Assembly (NCBI GenBank): GCA_001776775.1
Contig: MFDD01000002.1
Location: forward strand, 169,834 to 233,833
Source of the DNA: Candidatus Daviesbacteria bacterium RIFCSPHIGHO2_02_FULL_43_12
GTDB lineage: Bacteria > Patescibacteriota > Microgenomatia > Daviesbacterales > UBA10151
DNA: 64,000 bases
Direction of reading: 5' to 3'
Part shown: positions 1-47,361 of the stretch, piece by piece
Layout: each line of letters begins with the position of its first letter
Numbering within the stretch: position 1 is the stretch's first letter
Translations under genes and position numbers: made by a program
The notes under the pieces: generated by a model
What the model was told of the DNA's origin: nothing
The model's database searches: none
What the model saw: the letters and a program-made list of their open reading frames with translations, nothing else

Positions 1-2473
1 CTGCAGTTTTAACAGATTCTTGATTTCCAGTAGTTGCTGCATCAACCGAGAAATATTTAATAGTGTATTGCCCCTGAGCACTCAGAGTAATGCTATTACC
101 TGTACTTGAACTAGTAGTTGGAGTTGACCCATCAGTGGTGTAGTAGGTGGTGGCACAACCACTGTTTCCAGTAGCAGTATCCGAACAAGTTAAGGTGATA
201 GTGACAGCACTGTTGTGCCATAGACTGTCAGTGTTATCACTGGTGACAGGGGCGGTGGTATCGACTAATACTGATCCTTGGATCTCGCTACTTTGATTTG
301 CAGCATTGTCTTTGGCCAAGACAAAAAAGTTCCATGCTCCTTGAGTTAAATTAGTATTTACAGATGCAGTTGGGGCATTTACTATCCCATTTGGCCCGGC
401 TACTCCACCTAGCGTTGTTCTCCAGAAATATTGATAAATTCCAGAGAGTGCATCAGTGGCAGCTGTCCAATTCCAGGTTTGAGAAGTGGAGCTAGTTGGG
501 TTTGGGGTAGTAGTTGGAGTTCCCGGGTTAGTATTGGGGTTAGTTTTGTCAATTTTGACTAAATTAGCTGCAGTTTGGACTGCTTGGGTATTTCCATAAT
601 TATCAACTGAGAAGTATTTAATCGTGTACTGGCCATCGGTAGTTAAGATGATCGAGGTTCCCTGAGAGGAGGCAGTTGTCGGGGTTGAACCATCGGTGGT
701 GTAATAAGTCTTGAAACAGCCACTGACAGTATCTGTGCAAGTTAAGCTGATAGTTACTGAGCTATTGTGCCAGCTTGAGTCTGTATCATCAGTGGTTGTC
801 GGGGCGCTGGTATCTTTTTTTAATGAGTTAGTAGGGTTGGTTGTGGCGGAGCTTGTATTACCAGTGTTGCTGGGACCGGCATTATCTTTTAGAGTTACCG
901 AAACAATAACATTACTGCTATCAGGCAAACTCGAGACATTAATATTACTAATACTAAAGGTGCCGTTGGCTAAAACTGTAGTTACATCAGTTGCCGAAAC
1001 AGTAGTTCCGGAGCTGGTAATGGTGTAGCTTACCTTAGATCCTGCCTCTGCTCCAGATCCGGATATAGAAAAGGTTGTTAAATTAGTACTATCTACCTGA
1101 GTAGGGACGGTAATGCTAGCAGGTGCAGTTGGAGAAATGCTGTCTTTGGCTTGAGTTGCCTGTATATGGCTACTGGTGTATGAGAGGCTAGTTAATTGCA
1201 CATCAACGGTAAAGGTTCCTTCTCCTAAAGAGGTTAAATCTGCATTAAAGCTAAAGGTTCCGGATGAATTTACAGTTGTGGAGCCACTGGTGCTACCGCT
1301 AGTTCCGGTTATAGTGTAGTTTAGTGTTGCATTGGCTGCTCCAGTACCACTTACAGGATAACTTGCCTGGTTGCCAGAATAAGCCCCGACTAAAGCGCTG
1401 ATGGTTGGACTAATAATAACTACTGAGGTGCTTGCTGAAAATCCAGATATGGTAACTGGTGTTGTTTCTAAAATAAAACCACCGGTTACAGTGGGGCTAC
1501 CCTGACCGGTAATTATTAGCCTTTTTGTTACATGGACTGTCTCATTATAGGTGCCGGCGGCAACTGTAATTGTATCTAGGGGACTATTGTTATCTGTCGC
1601 GTTATTGATTGCCTGTTGGATGGTGGCAACACAGGTTGTGCCGGCGGTTGTACCGACTGTGACTGCATCACAATTGGCCTGAGTGTTGGGATCAACCACC
1701 ACAAACACGGTAAAGTGGTCTAGGTTCTGGATCGTAAAGGTGCCATCTCCGTTGTCAGTAATTGACTGACCGACCTGAGTAGCAGCGCTTAAGTTGTCAA
1801 CAGAAGAGGCATATAACACCTTAAGATTAGAAACTGTCACCCCTGCTGGAATCGGCAAAGTCAAATTATAAGTAAAGCTGCCGTTGCTCATGGATGAAGA
1901 GATATCGTAGGCAGTACTAGATAAGGCACCAATAGTACTGATCGCACTTGCTGACAGGGTAGTTTCCGAGATAGTCAAACTACCAGCTGATCCGCTGATC
2001 GAATTAAATTTTACTTTTACATTACTAGCAGGACCAGTATAGGTTGTGCCCACAGTAACAGTCGGTACAACGATCGTACTTGGGGACGTGCTGGGGCTAG
2101 GGGTTGGGGTTGGAGGGGTAGCACTTGGCTCAGTGGTCACAGTCCAACCAACTGGAACATTACAAGGGCTGGAATATTGCTGACAAACACTGGGGTTAGA
2201 GTCCATACAAGCATAGGTCATAACTTGAGCGCAAAAATCTGACTGTGTATTAACGGTGTCCGGAGATGGCGAGGGTAATGTAGAAGGTTCTGTTGAAGGT
2301 TCTAGGGTAGGGGTGACTGAGTCGCTGGCGACTGGGCTTGGAGAAGCAGTCACTTCCTCATCGGCCAATACCGGAGAGACAAGAGACGTACTGTTGGAGA
2401 AGGCCACGATAAAGGTGGCTAAAATAATTAATACAAAGTTAAAAATAGTTCTAATTTGCTTTAAATTTCTCAT
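1..2473 (-). CDS. Large secreted repeat-containing surface protein (5' part only; start codon 2471-2473, gene runs off window at position 1)
   Basis: Absent from ORF track because it has no stop in the window. Manual minus-strand translation from ATG at 2473 gives a signal peptide (MRNLKQIRTIFNFVLIILATFIVAFS), a Ser/Thr/Pro linker, a beta-helix-like stretch, then tandem ~100-aa units (…SLWHNSAVTITLTCSD…TYYTTDGSTPT…GQYTIKYFSVD…) typical of OmpL47/chitobiase-C type Ig-like surface repeats. DNA-level direct repeats are visible at ~200-290 vs ~760-815. Confidence 0.75.
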   Translation of the reverse strand, partial: MRNLKQIRTIFNFVLIILATFIVAFSNSTSLVSPVLADEEVTASPSPVASDSVTPTLEPSTEPSTLPSPSPDTVNTQSDFCAQVMTYACMDSNPSVCQQYSSPCNVPVGWTVTTEPSATPPTPTPSPSTSPSTIVVPTVTVGTTYTGPASNVKVKFNSISGSAGSLTISETTLSASAISTIGALSSTAYDISSSMSNGSFTYNLTLPIPAGVTVSNLKVLYASSVDNLSAATQVGQSITDNGDGTFTIQNLDHFTVFVVVDPNTQANCDAVTVGTTAGTTCVATIQQAINNATDNNSPLDTITVAAGTYNETVHVTKRLIITGQGSPTVTGGFILETTPVTISGFSASTSVVIISPTISALVGAYSGNQASYPVSGTGAANATLNYTITGTSGSTSGSTTVNSSGTFSFNADLTSLGEGTFTVDVQLTSLSYTSSHIQATQAKDSISPTAPASITVPTQVDSTNLTTFSISGSGAEAGSKVSYTITSSGTTVSATDVTTVLANGTFSISNINVSSLPDSSNVIVSVTLKDNAGPSNTGNTSSATTNPTNSLKKDTSAPTTTDDTDSSWHNSSVTISLTCTDTVSGCFKTYYTTDGSTPTTASSQGTSIILTTDGQYTIKYFSVDNYGNTQAVQTAANLVKIDKTNPNTNPGTPTTTPNPTSSTSQTWNWTAATDALSGIYQYFWRTTLGGVAGPNGIVNAPTASVNTNLTQGAWNFFVLAKDNAANQSSEIQGSVLVDTTAPVTSDNTDSLWHNSAVTITLTCSDTATGNSGCATTYYTTDGSTPTTSSSTGNSITLSAQGQYTIKYFSVDAATTGNQESVKTA

Positions 2474-15538: not shown

Positions 15539-15572
15539 TTTCTGTACATTTCTGTAGATAGCTGTTGATTAG

Positions 15573-15644
15573 AGCGGTGGACCGGACTTGAACCGGCGAC
15601 CTTCTCCTTGGGAAGGAGATATTCTACCACTGAACTACCACCGC
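15573..15644 (-). tRNA. tRNA-Gly (anticodon CCC)
   Basis: Reverse complement GCGGTGG-TA-GTTC-AGTGGTA-GAAT…TCTCC-tTCCCaa-GGAGA-AGGTC-GCCGG-TTCAAGT-CCGGT-CCACCGC-T; discriminator U. Confidence 0.9.
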
Positions 15645-41232: not shown

Positions 41233-42117
41233 CTATTTAGGAGAGTTAGCAAAAACGGTAAAAAGGCCTGCACTGTCAGCCTGAGCGGTCAGATTGCTGC
41301 CGGTAATCTTGGTCTCTAATATCTTCCAATTATTATCCTTTTCGATATATTGTCCAATTTGGGCATCAGTTGGTGGATTCTGCGCTAGTTCTATGGTCAC
41401 GCTCCCCGGTGGAAATTGTTTGGCAGTAGGCACATTAAAGGCATAAACTTTACCCAAGATCTGTTTGCCTTCCGGGATTTTTGGTGTCCCGGACAGATCA
41501 TTTACCAAAGTAAGTCCCACAATATTTAAATCTTGCCTAGAGGCTAGAGTTTTAAAACTAAAATGACTATCAGCAGAAGTTATCAACCCCAAGGCTACGT
41601 CCGGCTTTTGCATATGCCAGGTAGTATTAATCTTATAAACTTTAACTACCTTGTCCCCTGGTTTTGGCTTCTGCTTGATACGAAGAAGCAGAGTTCCATT
41701 CTCTACATTCAAATCAAAAACACAGTGCAATGGGTCTGAGGTGTCTCCCTTAGAACAGGTCCCAAAAAGGATCTCCTGGGTATATTCGCTCTTTTTATTC
41801 TGCATATCCAATGTGCCCGTTACCCCTCTATCGACCATCTCTTTGTCTTCGGTCTGGGATTGGTAGGCCAGTTCATAAGATATACCGTCATAATCGGACA
41901 CTCTTTTTATATTCAAAGATAGGGCATTACCGTCGCGGCGAGGAGATAAAAGGGCGTAGGGACCGTCCGCATTAAAGGGCAAATCAACCTCTTCTTCCGG
42001 GAGGACTACTTTTCTCTGGGAAAAAGCTTTCAGACCTACTCCAGTCAATATCACAAGTATAATAATTCCGGCAACAAGTAGGATTGTAGTCTTTTGGGCA
42101 AGCAAGCGTTTTAGCAT
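41233..42117 (-). CDS. Hypothetical membrane-anchored extracytoplasmic protein
   Basis: 294 aa, N-terminal TM then beta-rich domain. Confidence 0.45.
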   Translation of the reverse strand: MLKRLLAQKTTILLVAGIIILVILTGVGLKAFSQRKVVLPEEEVDLPFNADGPYALLSPRRDGNALSLNIKRVSDYDGISYELAYQSQTEDKEMVDRGVTGTLDMQNKKSEYTQEILFGTCSKGDTSDPLHCVFDLNVENGTLLLRIKQKPKPGDKVVKVYKINTTWHMQKPDVALGLITSADSHFSFKTLASRQDLNIVGLTLVNDLSGTPKIPEGKQILGKVYAFNVPTAKQFPPGSVTIELAQNPPTDAQIGQYIEKDNNWKILETKITGSNLTAQADSAGLFTVFANSPK

Positions 42118-42118
42118 A

Positions 42119-43444
42119 TTAGAATATTTTGGTCAGGAGGTAATTATCCAAATCCGAGATCTTTATTCTCTCTTGAGTGGCACTATCTCGATCCCTGACC
42201 GTGACACTTTCATCTTTCAGTGTATCAAAATCAACGGTAATACAAAAGGGAGTACCTGCCTCGTCTTGTGAGGCGTAGCGTTTTCCAATATTTCCCCGGT
42301 CATCCCAGGCGACCATCATCTTAACTTTAAGGGATTCGTAAATACCTCTCGCCTTCTCTACTAGCTCAGGTTTATTGGCCAGGAGCGGGAATACGGCAGC
42401 CTTAAACGGGGCAATTTTGGGTGAAAGTTTCATCACCACCCGTCCGTCTTCGGTTTCGAAGTAAGCGTCAATCAGTAAAAAGAGCACTGACCTATCCACT
42501 CCTGCCGAAGTTTCAATATCCCAGGGAATATAACTTTCACTCGTAAACGGATCCCTAAAACTCATATCTTGACCAGAGTATTTTTGATGACGAGACAAAT
42601 CCCAATCCCCACGATGGTGAATACCCATAAATTCAGACCAACCAAAAGGAGCATTATATTCTATATCTGTCGCGGCTTTAGCATAATGTGCTCTTTCGTC
42701 AGGTGCATGATCCCGAAAACGTAAATTATCCTTATTTATTCCCAGAGATAAATAGAAATCCATCCTATTTTGCTTCCAATATTCAAACCATTTCTCCCCC
42801 TCTTTCTCCTCGGGCTTGATATAAAACTGGACTTCCATCTGTTCAAACTCACGAGACCTGAAGGTAAAATTTCCTGGAGTAATCTCATTGCGAAAAGCTT
42901 TTCCGACCTGGGCTATTCCAAAAGGGATCCTGACCCTAGTTGAATCGATCACATTTCGAAAATTTACATGAACCCCGTTGGTGATCTCTCCCCGCAAAAA
43001 TATTTCCGATTGCTTACCTTCGATTACCCCCAAATAGGCTTTAACCAATAGATTAAACTGCTGAGGCTCGGTCCACTCTACCTTTTTTCCATTGTGCGAT
43101 AATTCATGGTCTTTGATCTCGTCTTGTTTGTCTGCTCGAAGCCTGGAGTGGCATATTTTGCACTCTACTAACGGATCTGTAAAAGCCTCGACATGTCCCG
43201 AGGCTTCCCACGCTTTAGGGTTCATCATGATGGCTGCATCAACCCCAACGATATCCGAGCGTAGCTGGACCATCTCTTTCCACCATATATCTTTTAAGTT
43301 TTTTTTAAGCAAAACCCCCAGTGGACCATAATCCCAGGTTCCTCCCAATCCTCCATAAATTTCCGATCCAGGAAAAATAAACCCCCGTCTTTTACAAAGG
43401 GCTACTATTTTCTCCATTAAATTTTGCTGAGTGTTTGTATTCAT
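42119..43444 (-). CDS. glyQS: Glycyl-tRNA synthetase, homodimeric alpha2 type
   Basis: 441 aa; LCKRRGFIFPGSEIYGGLGGTWDYGPLG N-terminus typical of alpha2 GlyRS; ATG start, no SD. Confidence 0.9.
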   Translation of the reverse strand: MNTNTQQNLMEKIVALCKRRGFIFPGSEIYGGLGGTWDYGPLGVLLKKNLKDIWWKEMVQLRSDIVGVDAAIMMNPKAWEASGHVEAFTDPLVECKICHSRLRADKQDEIKDHELSHNGKKVEWTEPQQFNLLVKAYLGVIEGKQSEIFLRGEITNGVHVNFRNVIDSTRVRIPFGIAQVGKAFRNEITPGNFTFRSREFEQMEVQFYIKPEEKEGEKWFEYWKQNRMDFYLSLGINKDNLRFRDHAPDERAHYAKAATDIEYNAPFGWSEFMGIHHRGDWDLSRHQKYSGQDMSFRDPFTSESYIPWDIETSAGVDRSVLFLLIDAYFETEDGRVVMKLSPKIAPFKAAVFPLLANKPELVEKARGIYESLKVKMMVAWDDRGNIGKRYASQDEAGTPFCITVDFDTLKDESVTVRDRDSATQERIKISDLDNYLLTKIF

Positions 43445-43510
43445 TTTTTTCTTATACTACATACTATATACCAAATACCTTCACAGCACACCTCCTAGAA
43501 AGGCGCTGCT

Positions 43511-43729
43511 TTACTTACTCTGCTCTTTTTGCGCCTTTCTTAAGTTCGCAATATGTTCCCGAAAGCAGGTAGCCCACTGTATCTTTGGTTCAACACAATG
43601 TATACGTTCTCCGCGCTTTACTTGCGCCGCCTCATATGCTGCTGCCCTTAATAAACTAAATCCCAAAAACTGACAGCTAGCCGTAAAGGCAATAAAAGTT
43701 ACCCTATCTCTCATCTTCCCTCGCTCCAT
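43511..43729 (-). CDS. Small basic ORF (72 aa) inside the glyQS leader
   Basis: AGGAGG 8 nt upstream of ATG 43729 (MERGKMRDRVTF…); ORF-track version starts at GTG 43738. Confidence 0.45.
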   Translation of the reverse strand: MERGKMRDRVTFIAFTASCQFLGFSLLRAAAYEAAQVKRGERIHCVEPKIQWATCFREHIANLRKAQKEQSK

Positions 43730-43779
43730 CCTAAACACCTCCTTTCTGCATTAAAAAATGCATACGGGACGAAGGTATC

Positions 43780-43900
43780 TAGGATACTCCGCGGTTCCAC
43801 GCCGTTTCCCCTCAACAACCATTAGGGCACTTTTGCGGCTTTGAAACTCCAGCTTGCCAAAGACTTTCAGCGTTTCATTAAGCCAGGAGGTTTTGTGAAT
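43780..43900 (-). promoter_or_regulatory. Second T-box-like element (GGCGUGGAACCGCGG) directly upstream of the small ORF
   Basis: T-box core on minus strand at 43789-43805; shares a 22-nt block GAAAGUCUUUGGCAAGCUGGAG with leader 1. Confidence 0.55.
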
Positions 43901-43908
43901 TTTTCCAT

Positions 43909-43940
43909 AAAAAAACTCGTCTCCTATAATGAGGGACGAG
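43909..43940 (-). terminator. Intrinsic terminator of T-box 1 (CUCGUCCCU-cauuau-AGGAGACGAG + U7)
   Basis: Stem-loop followed by UUUUUUU; the 5' half (CCCU…) can alternatively pair with AGGG of the T-box as antiterminator. Confidence 0.65.
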
Positions 43941-44058
43941 TTACACCCGCGGTTCCACCCTTATTGTTTAACTGAGCAAAGCTTTAAGTTAAACCTCCTT
44001 AATTTATTTCCCAGCTCCAGCTTGCCAAAGACTTTCATAGCCAGAAATATTTAGTTGT
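43941..44058 (-). promoter_or_regulatory. Glycine T-box riboswitch leader 1 (AAUAAGGGUGGAACCGCGGG core at 43946-43963)
   Basis: Exact match to the AGGGUGGNACCGCG T-box consensus on the glyQS strand, N=A complementary to discriminator U of tRNA-Gly; GGCA (Gly codon + A) in the upstream stem region. Confidence 0.75.
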
Positions 44059-44064
44059 AGACAA

Positions 44065-44093
44065 ATTATAGACAGATGAGTAATGCATGTCAA
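44065..44093 (-). promoter_or_regulatory. Sigma70 consensus promoter for the T-box/glyQS leader (TTGACA-17-TATAAT)
   Basis: Minus strand reads TTGACAtgcattactcatctgtcTATAAT, perfect hexamers with 17-nt spacer. Confidence 0.7.
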
Positions 44094-44113
44094 ATACTAT
44101 GAAAAAATAATTC

Positions 44114-44740
44114 TTAACGATGCGACAGAGCTACCTTAATACCAAGTCCAATTAACACAACTCCAATAAATTTTTCCGAGAAATGCTGAATTTTATTCAC
44201 TCGGCTTTTAATAAAATGATGAGATACCAGAAACGCGACCATCATAAACCAGAGGCTCGTTACAACGGTCATTTCAATACCCATAATTAATTTTACAAAA
44301 AGAGGGGTAGATGGATCGATAACTAGGGTAAAGAGACTTAAGAAAAAAAGAGTCGCCTTGGGATTTGTGACATTAGTCAAAAAGCCCATGCGTATCGCTG
44401 AAGTTTTAGAAATTTCTCTTCTATGCTCTGCACCTGCGAGCTCAAGTTTAGATGATTGCGAGAGTAGCGACATTACCCCGATATAAATTAGATACCCAGC
44501 TCCTAGAAATTTTATTAAATTAAAAAGTAAGATTGATTTAGCTATTACAAAACCGATACCAACAAAAGAGTAGGTAATATGAACCAATATTCCCAAACCC
44601 AGACCCAAAGCTGAATACATACCCGTCCTTCTGGAATACATCAGACTATTTCGAGTGATTAAAATAAAATCTGGCCCCGGGCTAATTACTGCTAATAAAT
44701 GAACTAGGGCAACAGTCAGAATAATTGGAACATACTGCAT
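44114..44740 (-). CDS. LysE/RhtB-family amino-acid exporter
   Basis: 208 aa, 6 TM, LysE-type N-terminus. Confidence 0.7.
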   Translation of the reverse strand: MQYVPIILTVALVHLLAVISPGPDFILITRNSLMYSRRTGMYSALGLGLGILVHITYSFVGIGFVIAKSILLFNLIKFLGAGYLIYIGVMSLLSQSSKLELAGAEHRREISKTSAIRMGFLTNVTNPKATLFFLSLFTLVIDPSTPLFVKLIMGIEMTVVTSLWFMMVAFLVSHHFIKSRVNKIQHFSEKFIGVVLIGLGIKVALSHR

Positions 44741-44771
44741 ATGGTTATCTTATCACATCTTAAAATTGATG

Positions 44772-45410
44772 TTATTTTCGCAGTTGTCTCATTACTTGAA
44801 TACTTTTTAAATTTGCTTCCAAGACTCTTTCGATATATTGTCTCAGAATATTCTCCAGAAACAAGGCCTCTTCTTCACTCAATGAAATTTCGTTAATTTG
44901 ATTCCAAGATAAGTGTTCTAATTGTTCTAGTAATTTGATCATTTCTTTCGGAAGATGTGGCAGGGCATTTATTGACCAAAACCCACTAACACTTAGTAAT
45001 TTCACTTCAAAAGCCCGCAAAAAAATCTGTCGGGGGTTTTTTTCTAATAGCTCCAGGATAGCTACAACCAAGGAATAAACCAGGGGGTTAAACTGATCTT
45101 CTGCTACCATTCTATCGACCAGTTCAAGGACGTGGAAAGCAGTCGTTGCCAGAGTCAAATTTTCTTTAATCTGCGGATAAACCTGGATCGCTTCGGCCTC
45201 TTGAAGATTGAAACTTTTAGCTTTAAAAAGATGTAGTTTGACCCGATTTAATACCTCAATATTTCCGGCTCTTCTGGAGGTTATTCGCCTGACCCCTTTG
45301 GCGACCACCGAGATCTTGCCGTACTGTTTGGTGATTATAGTAACCACCCTATCTGCCTCGCCAAAATTCTTTCTTTTTAAAATAACCCCTTCGGTGGTAA
45401 TCGATCCCAT
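44772..45410 (-). CDS. recO: DNA repair protein RecO
   Basis: 212 aa; N-terminal OB-fold pattern EGVILKRKNFGEADRVVTIITKQYGKISVVAKGVRR. Confidence 0.75.
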   Translation of the reverse strand: MGSITTEGVILKRKNFGEADRVVTIITKQYGKISVVAKGVRRITSRRAGNIEVLNRVKLHLFKAKSFNLQEAEAIQVYPQIKENLTLATTAFHVLELVDRMVAEDQFNPLVYSLVVAILELLEKNPRQIFLRAFEVKLLSVSGFWSINALPHLPKEMIKLLEQLEHLSWNQINEISLSEEEALFLENILRQYIERVLEANLKSIQVMRQLRK

Positions 45411-45411
45411 G

Positions 45412-47361
45412 TTACAAAGGAAGCTTCAGATCCATATCGGAAGAAAGTTCAAAGTTTGCTTTTTCTTTACCATTAATCTTCACTACATACTTATAATCAT
45501 GGGTTCCTGGCTGTTTCTGGATCAAAAGGGGATAATCCCTACCCAAAGCTCCCTTAGGGGTTGTGTATTCAAAAGTCAAAGTTAACGAATTCTGAGGACG
45601 GATCTGAATAAAAGCCTCAAAGACAGTTTTACCTAAGTCGTCTTCAATGGTTGTTACTTTCTCTTCCGACCCCTTTGACAGAGACAACCTGGCCCCTTTT
45701 GGTACATAAACCCGAACATAATCTCTATTAATACCATTTAACCAAGTTTTATACGGCTCCGGATTTTTGTAGTTTAAAGTCAACTTATGTTTGATATCCG
45801 CCCCATTAGTGTCAATCTCCAGCAGACCATCGACTGTTACATAGATATTTGATTTTCCACCGGCAAAGTTAGAGTCATTGACATGTAGATAGTCGCGGTC
45901 TGTTTGTTTTATCTCCCCAGTCCAATTCAATGCCGAGAGTGCTTGTTGGGTAGGAGAGTCGTGCATATAAAACATGATATGTTTAGCATTGGCCAGCTTT
46001 ACTCCGGCATTAATAAATTCCGGGAGTTTGTCTGTACTAGCTCCCAATGATCGCGCCAAGATCTGCTGCATCAATGTGCCAAGTATGGCTTTGCGATCCG
46101 CCTCACCCTTCTCAATAATCTGGGCATAATTTTCTAACTCATATATGACGTTTGGACAGTTACATCTTTTATCAGTCTCAGCGCTATAAGTAGTGCCAAA
46201 CACATCAATTGGTCCGGTAATCCTAATCAGCTCTTCTACAACTTGTGTATCAATTGTAATAATGCCATCAAACGGATCCTCCTTTAAAAAGCTATACATC
46301 TTTTCAAATGTTTTTAGAGAAGTCTGCAGGTCAGGAGAGAGATTAGAGTCTCTCATGGACCAGGCAGTTCGAGCTTTCCCATTTTCCTCAGGTAAATATT
46401 TGACGATTGGTGCAGGAGGTGTCAGGGGGCAAATCACGTTTAAACATACTTTAAGCAATCTTTCGTCAAGTCGATAAATATCATCTGATTTACTCGAGGA
46501 GATTCGACCTTTATCAAGACTCATAAAAGCATATGCGGTCATAAATCCTCCTGTGGCGCGTAACTCTTTATCATTTTGAAAGATAATTAAATAATTCTTT
46601 GGACTTGGTTCTCCAAGGGCGGACGGGGCAATTTTAAGAGCTGGCCTAGCCTTCGTCACCACATAGTTTGCCCCAATAATCAGATTTTTAATAATCTCCA
46701 CCCGAGATCTGACAGCTGTGTGTCCTAAACTTGCAGGGTATTTAGCAACATCTATATGTTCAACCTCAACGGATGCTTTGGCTAACTGAGGCTCGATTGA
46801 ATCTAAGTTAGGAATAGCTTTATCTAATATTTTAATAGCTTGGGTAATGCGGTCTTGTCCGGGGGTCGGATGTCCAGTTAAACCCAATTCTGTTTTATAT
46901 GGATCTAACCAGTCAGTAATAGTCAGAGCGGCTTGAATTTCATTACCGGCTGCCGAGGCGAAATGGTTTGCATCGGCATAATAATCACCAACAAAAGGGA
47001 GGACTCTAACCCAAAACAAAAAAGACAAAGAGGTCTTTAGTTGACCTATATTAGAATGAATCACTTTTAAATCACTGCGAATGCCGTCTAAGTCCTCATT
47101 TTTCACTGCTACAGACAAAGCTTTGCCGTTAACCATCAGCTTACGCACTGCACTATAAACCCCGCGGATCGGCAGATAGATGGTCAGGGTTGCGACAATC
47201 AAAACTATTAATACTCGAAAGAAAAGTTTACGTTTACTTTTCTTTTTCTCCTGGCGCTCCCTTTTATCGAGTCGCTGTAGTTTAGAGTTTAAATTTTGGA
47301 ATTTCACTAGACAGCTCCTCTCGTGGTTAAAACCGCGGGAATAGTCTTGATGATTATCCAC
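45412..47361 (-). CDS. Large membrane-anchored extracytoplasmic protein of unknown function (possibly DUF4012-like)
   Basis: 649 aa, basic N-terminus, single TM, GTG start in ORF track; sits immediately downstream of the initiating sugar transferase. Confidence 0.45.
   Translation of the reverse strand: MDNHQDYSRGFNHERSCLVKFQNLNSKLQRLDKRERQEKKKSKRKLFFRVLIVLIVATLTIYLPIRGVYSAVRKLMVNGKALSVAVKNEDLDGIRSDLKVIHSNIGQLKTSLSFLFWVRVLPFVGDYYADANHFASAAGNEIQAALTITDWLDPYKTELGLTGHPTPGQDRITQAIKILDKAIPNLDSIEPQLAKASVEVEHIDVAKYPASLGHTAVRSRVEIIKNLIIGANYVVTKARPALKIAPSALGEPSPKNYLIIFQNDKELRATGGFMTAYAFMSLDKGRISSSKSDDIYRLDERLLKVCLNVICPLTPPAPIVKYLPEENGKARTAWSMRDSNLSPDLQTSLKTFEKMYSFLKEDPFDGIITIDTQVVEELIRITGPIDVFGTTYSAETDKRCNCPNVIYELENYAQIIEKGEADRKAILGTLMQQILARSLGASTDKLPEFINAGVKLANAKHIMFYMHDSPTQQALSALNWTGEIKQTDRDYLHVNDSNFAGGKSNIYVTVDGLLEIDTNGADIKHKLTLNYKNPEPYKTWLNGINRDYVRVYVPKGARLSLSKGSEEKVTTIEDDLGKTVFEAFIQIRPQNSLTLTFEYTTPKGALGRDYPLLIQKQPGTHDYKYVVKINGKEKANFELSSDMDLKLPL

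Follow-up and report, generated by a model that had tools for sequence, protein, structure and literature searches.

The T-boxes closest to the system described here are the glyQS leaders of Bacillus and Geobacillus, the translational ileS leaders of Actinobacteria and the tandem leaders of the Bacillota. Translational T-boxes typically have short Stem I's together with insertions in helix A2 (PMC7583486, section 6.2), and the three G-C pairs between codon and anticodon are believed to be what lets glycyl T-boxes do without Stem II (PMC11404447). Among aminoacyl-tRNA synthetase (aaRS) genes, ThrS was the only one with tandem T-boxes in a survey of 5,418 genomes from 2025, and the Rfam threshold for T-boxes excludes bona fide T-boxes (PMC12452182). 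Here we consider the leader of glyQS, which encodes a glycyl-tRNA synthetase (GlyRS), in a 64,000-nucleotide (nt) stretch of Candidatus Daviesbacteria bacterium RIFCSPHIGHO2_02_FULL_43_12 (contig MFDD01000002.1; the whole stretch is called “the window,” and positions are counted along it).

An earlier note, made from the letters of this DNA, had proposed two glycine T-boxes in tandem upstream of glyQS, the first acting by termination and the second abutting an open reading frame (ORF). This proposal is supported: a covariance model (R2) made from five elements of the Candidate Phyla Radiation (CPR), found through GlyRS protein homology only and containing no sequence from the window, has exactly two matches on both strands of the whole window, and these are the two proposed sites (E1, 57.4 bits, E=3e-11; E2, 40.0 bits, E=2.6e-7). 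We consider it likely that glyQS carries a leader with two minimal glycyl T-boxes in tandem, of which the first acts on transcription and the second on translation. The parts of the two elements are as follows, where SD stands for Shine-Dalgarno sequence and MFE for minimum free energy.

44048..43909, minus strand: E1, whole element, a T-box of the terminator type.
44010..44045, minus strand: E1 Stem I, ultrashort, with a C-stem of 44045..44040 paired with 44015..44010.
43966..43994, minus strand: E1 Stem III, GUUUAACU (43994..43987) paired with AGUUAAAC (43973..43966), in both the MFE and the centroid fold.
43932..43961, minus strand: E1 T-box sequence and antiterminator, with helix A1 AGGG/CCCU, bulge UGGAACC (43957..43951) and helix A2 GCGGG/CUCGU.
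43909..43940, minus strand: E1 intrinsic terminator, CUCGUCCCU / AGGAGACGAG and then U7 (43915..43909), the MFE hairpin.
43884..43727, minus strand: E2, whole element, a T-box of the SD-sequestering type.
43837..43884, minus strand: E2 Stem I, with an outer GGCUU/AAGCC helix and a C-stem of UGAAAC (43877..43872) with GUUUCA (43847..43842).
43809..43827, minus strand: E2 Stem III, CCCU (43827..43824) paired with AGGG (43812..43809).
43765..43804, minus strand: E2 T-box core and anti-sequestrator, with helix A1 C-GG(c)G/CCCG and bulge UGGAACC (43799..43793).
43727..43786, minus strand: E2 sequestrator, GUAUCCUAGAUACCUUC (43786..43771) paired with GGAGGUGUUUAGGAUG (43742..43727) over 15-16 bp, in the MFE fold.

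The Rfam T-box model (RF00230, gathering score 93 bits), which the earlier note had named as a check, recovers one of the two elements and that one below threshold. At the gathering threshold the whole window yields three tRNAs and nothing else. At a permissive threshold RF00230 matches E1 at 44047..43929 with 41.6-42.7 bits (E=1e-7 in a 751-nt region, 4.5e-6 in the whole window), and it has no match to E2 at E<10; the family models match both. In the alignment of E1 to RF00230 the kink-turn (K-turn), Stem III, T-box sequence and antiterminator are aligned, and 80 Stem I and 40 Stem II positions are deleted; GCUAUGAAAG / CUGGAGCU are set against the K-turn consensus gCgaUGAaag / cugGAGcuu, a correspondence at the level of sequence only. 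The low score is due to the ultrashort Stem I with its specifier in the apical loop, lacking both distal Stem I and Stem II, and the other members of the family described below score 40-51 bits against RF00230 or are not matched. Weak Rfam matches to PyrR, snoRNA and ES205, with E-values of 2.5-9, we put down to chance.

To define the family we took 80 glyQS loci from GTDB genomes, all CPR-like and with GlyRS 63-83% identical to that of the window, the nearest metagenomic GlyRS locus (L084, 88% identical), and nine loci from a metagenome scan with the pattern CTTTGGCAAGC-N40-70-GTGGAACCGCGG, in which 23 nt are fixed. The GlyRS of the nine pattern-derived loci are only 45-53% identical to that of the window, and one of them lies in a cluster named Anaerolinea sp.; thus the class is not confined to the CPR. 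A first model (R1) of 14 elements, with E1 in and E2 out, gives 91.9 bits for E1 and 63.7 bits (E=4.5e-17) for E2. Since the fixed pattern and the block common to E1 and E2 both introduce bias, R2 was built to remove both. The matches to E1 and E2 are full-length and lie 167-168 nt apart. Of 90 loci searched with R1, 15 have a single element each and the remainder have none, and a strict regular expression upstream of the 80 CPR glyQS loci is found in 3 only. Two candidates were set aside: a third R1 match (window 144..241, minus strand, 18.9 bits), which contains GUCUAUGGCAC, lies inside a Thr/Ser-rich coding region, lacks a T-box core and is taken as chance, and a candidate at -773 in L076, in sequence of high GC and coding-like character, found no confirmation from the model.

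The minimal class so defined comprises 19 elements at 17 loci from CPR and Chloroflexota, and every one of the 19 lies directly upstream of an alpha2 GlyRS gene and of no other gene. In the 19-element alignment, whose fitting to the model leans towards pairing, 92.5% of cells are paired as against 37-49% when the partners are slid; changes on both sides occur at 19 of 23 pairs, and none of 500 shuffles reaches any of these measures. Helices A1 and A2 are 97-100% paired, and Stem III (helix 3) shows double changes at all five of its pairs with 97.8% of cells paired. That the family structure is real nonetheless is indicated by the slid controls and by the independent model. The T-box bulge is present in full, with the 7 nt of UGGNACC between A1 and A2 in both E1 and E2, and the specifier GGC followed by a purine, A, matches the GlyRS target in 19/19. 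What the elements lack is a long Stem I in which the specifier loop is internal and an AG bulge and a distal loop make up the elbow-binding platform. Among the individual members, L084 (190..250) and L089 have insertions of 35-45 nt with a hairpin of their own in the A2 loop, reminiscent of staphylococcal stem Sa; L070 (205..293) is without Stem III and has the bulge UGGAAAC; and L090 (510..628) is without a recognisable GA motif.

A leader that resembles a T-box without sensing tRNA, such as an attenuator that is constitutive or binds a protein, would account for scores under the Rfam threshold and for the absence of the elbow and Stem II contacts of known T-boxes (PMC7583486). It would not account for which nucleotides are constant: GGC-A in the loop, the first five bulge bases UGGAA and the last bulge C, all of them tRNA-contacting positions, are invariant in 19/19 elements, the sixth bulge base varying in L070 alone. 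Nor does it sit easily with the UGGA of the bulge being complementary to the UCCA end of tRNA-Gly, or with a distribution of 19 out of 19 upstream of GlyRS and nothing else, and we regard it as very improbable.

On the minus strand all the sequence features named in the earlier note are there, at the positions it gave or a few bases away. The first T-box core is present as AAUAAGGGUGGAACCGCGGG at 43965..43946, the hairpin with U7 at 43909..43940 is the MFE hairpin, and its CCCU arm can pair instead with AGGG as helix A1 of an antiterminator of -7.3 to -8.2 kcal/mol; the alternatives come to about -8 kcal/mol for the antiterminator and -11.5 kcal/mol for the terminator hairpin alone, with an MFE of -15.9 kcal/mol for the 61-nt platform. 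The 5' arm of the terminator, CUCGUCCCU, is the 3' strand of the antiterminator, so that the two are mutually exclusive. Within Stem I, a K-turn/GA motif (UAU-GA, 44039..44035, and GGA, 44018..44016) lies below a 3-bp stem AGU/GCU, which closes the 9-nt apical loop CUUUGGCAA; the specifier GGC (44026..44024) and the A after it (44023) are in this loop. Stem I is supported by the R1 and R2 alignments and by covariation in helices 1 and 2. Between Stem I and Stem III there are about 15 unpaired nt, where no helix is predicted or conserved.

E2 repeats two parts of E1. The 12-mer GTGGAACCGCGG occurs exactly twice in the window (43958..43947 and 43800..43789), against 0.04 expected, with at least two copies in 0 of 100 shuffles, and the block UGAAAGUCUUUGGCAAGCUGGAG occurs at 44037..44015 and 43869..43847 with 100% identity. 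The earlier note had seen this block and rightly called it identical and a candidate specifier region, as it holds GGC-A in the loop at the tip of a stem over a K-turn; its length is 23 nt and not 22. A Stem I with a GGN specifier can thus be folded upstream of both cores, as that note had asked for, with GGC-A in an apical rather than an internal loop. The second core, placed by the note at 43789..43805, is GGCGUGGAACCGCGG at 43803..43789. In the centroid fold E2 has the K-turn GCU-GA/GGA, and the AGU/GCU stem and CUUUGGCAA loop as in E1; its specifier GGC is at 43858..43856, followed by A (GGC-A, 43858..43855). The linker between Stem I and Stem III is about 9 unpaired nt, GCAAAAGUG, again with no helix predicted or conserved.

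Outside the shared block and core, E1 and E2 are about 59% identical. Nevertheless E2 forms all but one of the 23 model pairs (22), and in 8 of them both bases are changed relative to E1, including the whole Stem I C-stem, three Stem III pairs and the base pair of A1 (C-G in E2 and A-U in E1, a compensatory change); five of the six C-stem pairs differ and all still pair. Judged from the sequences, such helix-keeping changes would not be expected of a decaying copy.

The 3' part of E2 departs from that of E1. A terminator accompanies all 17 elements other than E2 and its counterpart E2' in an ENA scaffold of Daviesbacteria (L094, GlyRS 85% identical to that of the window), that is, the 15 singles, E1 and the E1' of L094; neither E2 nor E2' has one. 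We considered E2 as a terminator and rejected it, there being no U-tract after any hairpin and the sole nearby U-run being the loop of a small inner hairpin. This is the UGCAUU-UUUU-AAUGCA hairpin (43762..43747) that the earlier note had reported together with AGGAGG (43743..43738); both are there, and the meaningful structure is the 15-16-bp sequestrator helix that encloses the hairpin. The sequestrator is predicted to bury the SD GGAGG (43742..43738) and the start codon AUG (43729..43727). It shares GAUACCUUC with the extended A2 helix, GCGGAGUAUC-CUA-GAUACCUUCGU (43792..43769; canonical fold -8.8 kcal/mol), and so is an alternative to the anti-sequestrator. Its energy of -27.3 kcal/mol compares with -12.2 +/- 2.9 in shuffles of the 3' part, 0/1000 of which reach it. 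E2 and E2' thus have the SD in an alternative helix with no U-tract, as in translational T-boxes, and lack the Stem II with S-turn and IIA/B pseudoknot.

The tandem recurs. L094 has two R1 matches (56.3 and 48.7 bits), followed by a 99-codon ORF and then glyQS, so that in both the window and L094 two units of sensor and platform stand on one leader; the first element of L094 has a terminator, the second has the same sequestrator (MFE -32.4 kcal/mol), and A1 of E2' is canonical, AGGG/CCCU. Identity between the window and L094 is distributed unevenly along the leader:

E2 hairpin-SD-AUG platform: 90%.
E1 T-box and antiterminator: 88%.
E1 Stem III: 83%.
Body of the ORF: 37%.

Flanking sequence is 37-46% identical. 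The contrast between platform and ORF is strong evidence, on the level of sequence comparison, for selection on the RNA; as E2 is in two genomes only, its own covariation evidence is thin. The Stem I hairpins of L094 (92..130 and 278..315) differ from each other, with loops AAAUUGGCA and AUGGCA, from which it follows that the 23-nt identity in the window is a lineage-specific homogenisation; this suggests gene conversion between the two Stem I copies in the lineage of the window.

These observations bear on whether E1 might be the sole working riboswitch, with E2 a decaying duplicate and the SD helix behind it incidental. The R1 score of 63.7 bits against 91.9 for E1, the failure of RF00230 to match E2 at E<10, the extra C in its helix A1 and the orphan nature of the ORF behind it would all fit such a history, as would the single element in L084, the closest relative by GlyRS (88%). 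A decaying duplicate would hardly have kept 22 of 23 pairs with 8 of them changed on both sides, or an intact bulge, GGC-A loop and K-turn, and it leaves unexplained both a sequestrator energy that none of the 1000 shuffles attains and the 90% identity of E2 and its platform in L094 across flanks of 37-46%. We therefore think decay of E2 unlikely, and prefer a second unit that works.

The earlier note had asked whether orthologous glyQS loci carry one copy or two: L094 has two as well, so that the tandem is not unique to the window, and the others have one or none. A single element is found in L084 and in 5 of the 80 GTDB loci, and L096 has no T-box element. In L095 and L097-L100, relatives with a GlyRS 90-96.5% identical to the L094 protein, recO lies directly upstream of glyQS with no T-box. 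The leader is thus a presence/absence polymorphism among very close relatives and, given its presence in L094 and absence in these, must have been gained or lost quickly. The ancestral synteny is recO-glyQS-(294 aa)-mraZ; in the window the lysE gene also stands between recO and the leader. Many of the GTDB metagenome-assembled genomes are titled “uncultured Gammaproteobacteria bacterium” (binchicken; L002-L004, L006-L009, L017, L070, L071 and others), while their GlyRS are 69-83% identical to that of Daviesbacteria and their synteny is CPR-like; these titles look like placeholder taxonomy.

Between E2 and glyQS the leader contains two further features.

43511..43729, minus strand: ORF72, an orphan ORF of 72 codons that starts at the sequestered AUG.
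43492..43506, minus strand: a conserved 15-mer, GCGCCUUUCUAGGAG, 4 nt past the ORF72 stop.

ORF72 has no Pfam domain, no tblastn match in the 80 loci and no homologue but itself among 5.8 billion proteins; its codon score of 0.03 lies between real genes and off-frames and is ambiguous. The ORF in the same position in L094 (ORF99) is likewise an orphan and has no similarity to ORF72. The probability of staying open by chance is P=0.006 for ORF72 and P=0.00015 for ORF99. In L094 the 15-mer GCGCCUUUCUAGGAG is found at about 749..763, 6 nt past the ORF99 stop, and in the window its 5' part pairs with AGAAAGGCGC (43540..43531) in the last ORF72 codons as a 10-bp hairpin. The 15-mer may be a coupling element. 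We speculate that it is the translating of the ORF, and not its product, that would be under selection and would relay the decision of E2 to glyQS. Between the 15-mer and the glyQS AUG there are also mini-ORFs, GUG and 5 codons in the window and AUG and 4 codons in L094.

E2 occludes the ORF's SD and AUG and leaves those of glyQS, whose start is 285 nt farther along, outside its helix, and this opens another reading: both elements work, E2 controls only a lineage-specific small protein (ORF72 or ORF99), and glyQS is under E1 alone and translated independently. That both ORFs are open far beyond chance would suit a small protein, and the single-T-box glyQS leaders of L084 and L017 are also without a strong SD, so that translation of glyQS need not rely on an ORF before it. 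The two ORFs are, however, dissimilar and without homologues, which is hard to square with a glycine-related protein, whereas both stop 4-6 nt before the same 15-mer, and the 10-bp hairpin of the last ORF codons with the 15-mer in the window is a layout typical of coupling. A separate small protein is on balance improbable, if a little less so than decay of E2, and we retain a relay from E2 to glyQS as the preferred, though speculative, reading.

The locus around the leader contains the following.

42119..43444, minus strand: glyQS, the controlled gene, for an alpha2-type glycine--tRNA ligase of 441 aa (Pfam HGTP_anticodon and tRNA-synt_2b).
44065..44093, minus strand: sigma-70-type promoter, with -35 TTGACA (44093..44088), a 17-nt spacer and -10 TATAAT (44070..44065).
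44740..44114, upstream of the leader: LysE-family gene (Pfam LysE).

The earlier note had read the gap upstream of glyQS, which it gave as 650 bp, as an RNA leader with a perfect promoter just after the lysE stop, and with the promoter and two T-box elements found there we concur; from the lysE stop to the glyQS ATG (43444) the distance on the minus strand is 669 nt. The TTGACA-17-TATAAT promoter, at the coordinates that were claimed, begins 20 nt past the lysE stop (44114) and is the sole 12/12 match within 42000..46000. The transcription start would lie near 44058, about 10 nt before E1 Stem I. Comparable promoters precede the single elements of L017 and L028 and the tandem of L094, and a scan of the minus strand from 44028 to 43183 predicts no separate promoter for E2 or glyQS. 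The GlyRS of the window and the glycine--tRNA ligase of Candidatus Daviesbacteria bacterium RIFCSPHIGHO2_01_FULL_44_29 are 100% identical; in the three contigs with an identical GlyRS the leaders are identical too, with no within-population variation. Directly 3' of glyQS lies a 294-aa ORF (41233..42117, minus strand) without a Pfam match, and an ORF of 294-303 aa keeps its place between glyQS and mraZ in the Daviesbacteria-like relatives that were fetched. It is probably co-transcribed with glyQS and hence also under the T-box leader.

The only tRNA-Gly gene in the window (15572..15644, minus strand) has the anticodon CCC and U73. Bacterial tRNA-Gly in general has U73. The bulge base N=A (UGGA) matches U73 and the UCCA end of tRNA-Gly. 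The discriminator pairing put forward in the earlier note, between N=A and the U73 of the tRNA-Gly in the window, therefore stands as regards the base; this tRNA is, however, the CCC isoacceptor, whose anticodon would fail to match the GGC specifier at the wobble position, and not the one that reads GGC.

From the observed sequence, structure, family membership, covariation and conservation, we infer tRNA binding, termination, SD occlusion and coupling along the following lines. One leader RNA from the promoter at 44093..44065 would carry both glycine T-boxes, each of which would use the apical loop over its K-turn to offer GGC-A to the tRNA-Gly(GCC) anticodon, while the UGGA of the bulge would pair with an uncharged 3' end, UCCA. 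At E1, acting co-transcriptionally, uncharged tRNA-Gly would stabilise the weak antiterminator (about -8 kcal/mol) over the terminator at 43940..43909, and in its absence transcription would end at that terminator. Read-through transcripts would contain E2, where the longer A2 would compete with the helix of -27 kcal/mol in which SD and AUG are buried, and uncharged tRNA-Gly would there permit translation initiation of the short ORF. More speculatively, translation of the ORF, ending 4-6 nt before the 15-mer, might pass the decision of E2 to glyQS by translational coupling or by protection from polarity. Two switches in series could give glyQS a steeper dependence on uncharged tRNA-Gly.

The general form of this proposal is that a minimal T-box senses only the anticodon, through three G-C pairs, and the NCCA end, without elbow contact or a Stem II clamp, yet terminates co-transcriptionally, and that in a Daviesbacteria lineage two such units are chained as a hybrid gate, the first acting on transcription and the second relaying through a leader ORF unconstrained in sequence. 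This we advance tentatively, with a little less than an even chance of being right.

Several observations weigh against a working tandem of this kind. Neither element comes near the Rfam gathering threshold, and nine members of the family were retrieved by a pattern with 23 fixed nt, at which positions identity is not evidence of conservation. The cognate tRNA-Gly(GCC) is not seen within the window, where only the CCC isoacceptor occurs; the gene for the GCC one must be in another part of the genome. Helix A1 of E2 in the window has one inserted C, and the sequestrator of E2 exceeds the anti-sequestrator in stability by about 18 kcal/mol, a gap so large that the switch would have to be kinetic. 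ORF72 is without a homologue and has a weak coding signal, and its coupling to glyQS is conjectural. The absence of the leader in close relatives, with GlyRS 96% identical to that of L094, means that it is dispensable. Truncated Stem I's barely bind tRNA without Stem II, and transcriptional T-boxes generally need the elbow contact (PMC7583486); for a minimal Stem I that has neither affinity module, efficient co-transcriptional sensing by E1 is thus not assured.

The last point also bears on T-boxes in general: a covarying family without an elbow platform or Stem II, and with terminators in 17/19, either contradicts that rule or implies a further, compensating contact. By analogy with other glycyl T-boxes, the three G-C codon-anticodon pairs may explain the further reduction in the minimal class. 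As the elements score at half the Rfam threshold, standard annotation misses the class, and the use of T-boxes outside the Bacillota and Actinomycetota, including in the CPR, is probably underestimated. With about 115 nt for aptamer and platform, the class would also lend itself well, as a minimal scaffold, to structural studies and to the engineering of tRNA sensors, and the conservation of the ORF in position, not in sequence, makes the coupling mechanism directly testable. If the proposal is true, aaRS genes would gain a new layout of regulation, no natural switch that senses tRNA would be smaller, and the CPR would have its first described T-box system. The searchable literature contains neither this arrangement nor so minimal a design, and nothing that combines T-boxes with CPR or Patescibacteria; key older papers lie outside that search, so that an earlier account of a Stem II-less ultrashort glycyl class is possible.

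Compared with the glyQS T-box of Bacillus and Geobacillus (RF00230), the elements share the GlyRS target, the GGC-A specifier, the K-turn at the base of Stem I, the lack of Stem II and IIA/B, the single-stranded linker, Stem III and the UGGA in a 7-nt bulge, and E1 shares the opposition of antiterminator and intrinsic terminator. They differ in Stem I, which in Bacillus and Geobacillus is about 85 nt with an internal-loop specifier and a distal interdigitated T-loop platform on the tRNA elbow, whereas here it is about 36 nt with an apical-loop specifier and no distal platform.

In the apical-loop specifier and the short Stem I above a K-turn they resemble the translational ileS T-boxes of Actinobacteria (6UFG/6UFM, cited in PMC7583486), and E2 resembles these further in that an SD-sequestering helix replaces the terminator and A2 is extended. 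The actinobacterial T-boxes, however, need the S-turn of Stem II together with the IIA/B pseudoknot as a clamp on the codon-anticodon duplex, where the elements here have only a short A-rich linker (about 15-25 nt); their specificity is for Ile and not Gly, and they are translational, whereas 17/19 members of our family, including E1, use termination.

Like the tandem T-boxes of the Bacillota (trp operon, thrS/thrZ and ilv-leu; PMC12452182), the leader has two complete units in series for the same tRNA, so that expression would need two productive tRNA encounters. The tandems of the Bacillota are full-length and both of their units terminate; here minimal units precede glyQS, the second of them sequesters an SD, and a non-conserved ORF stands before the target. 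The claim of the earlier note that such an arrangement had not been described is consistent with the restriction of aaRS tandems to ThrS in the 5,418-genome survey, beside which glyQS would be the second aaRS gene with serial T-boxes, and the first case found in which transcriptional and translational platforms are mixed.

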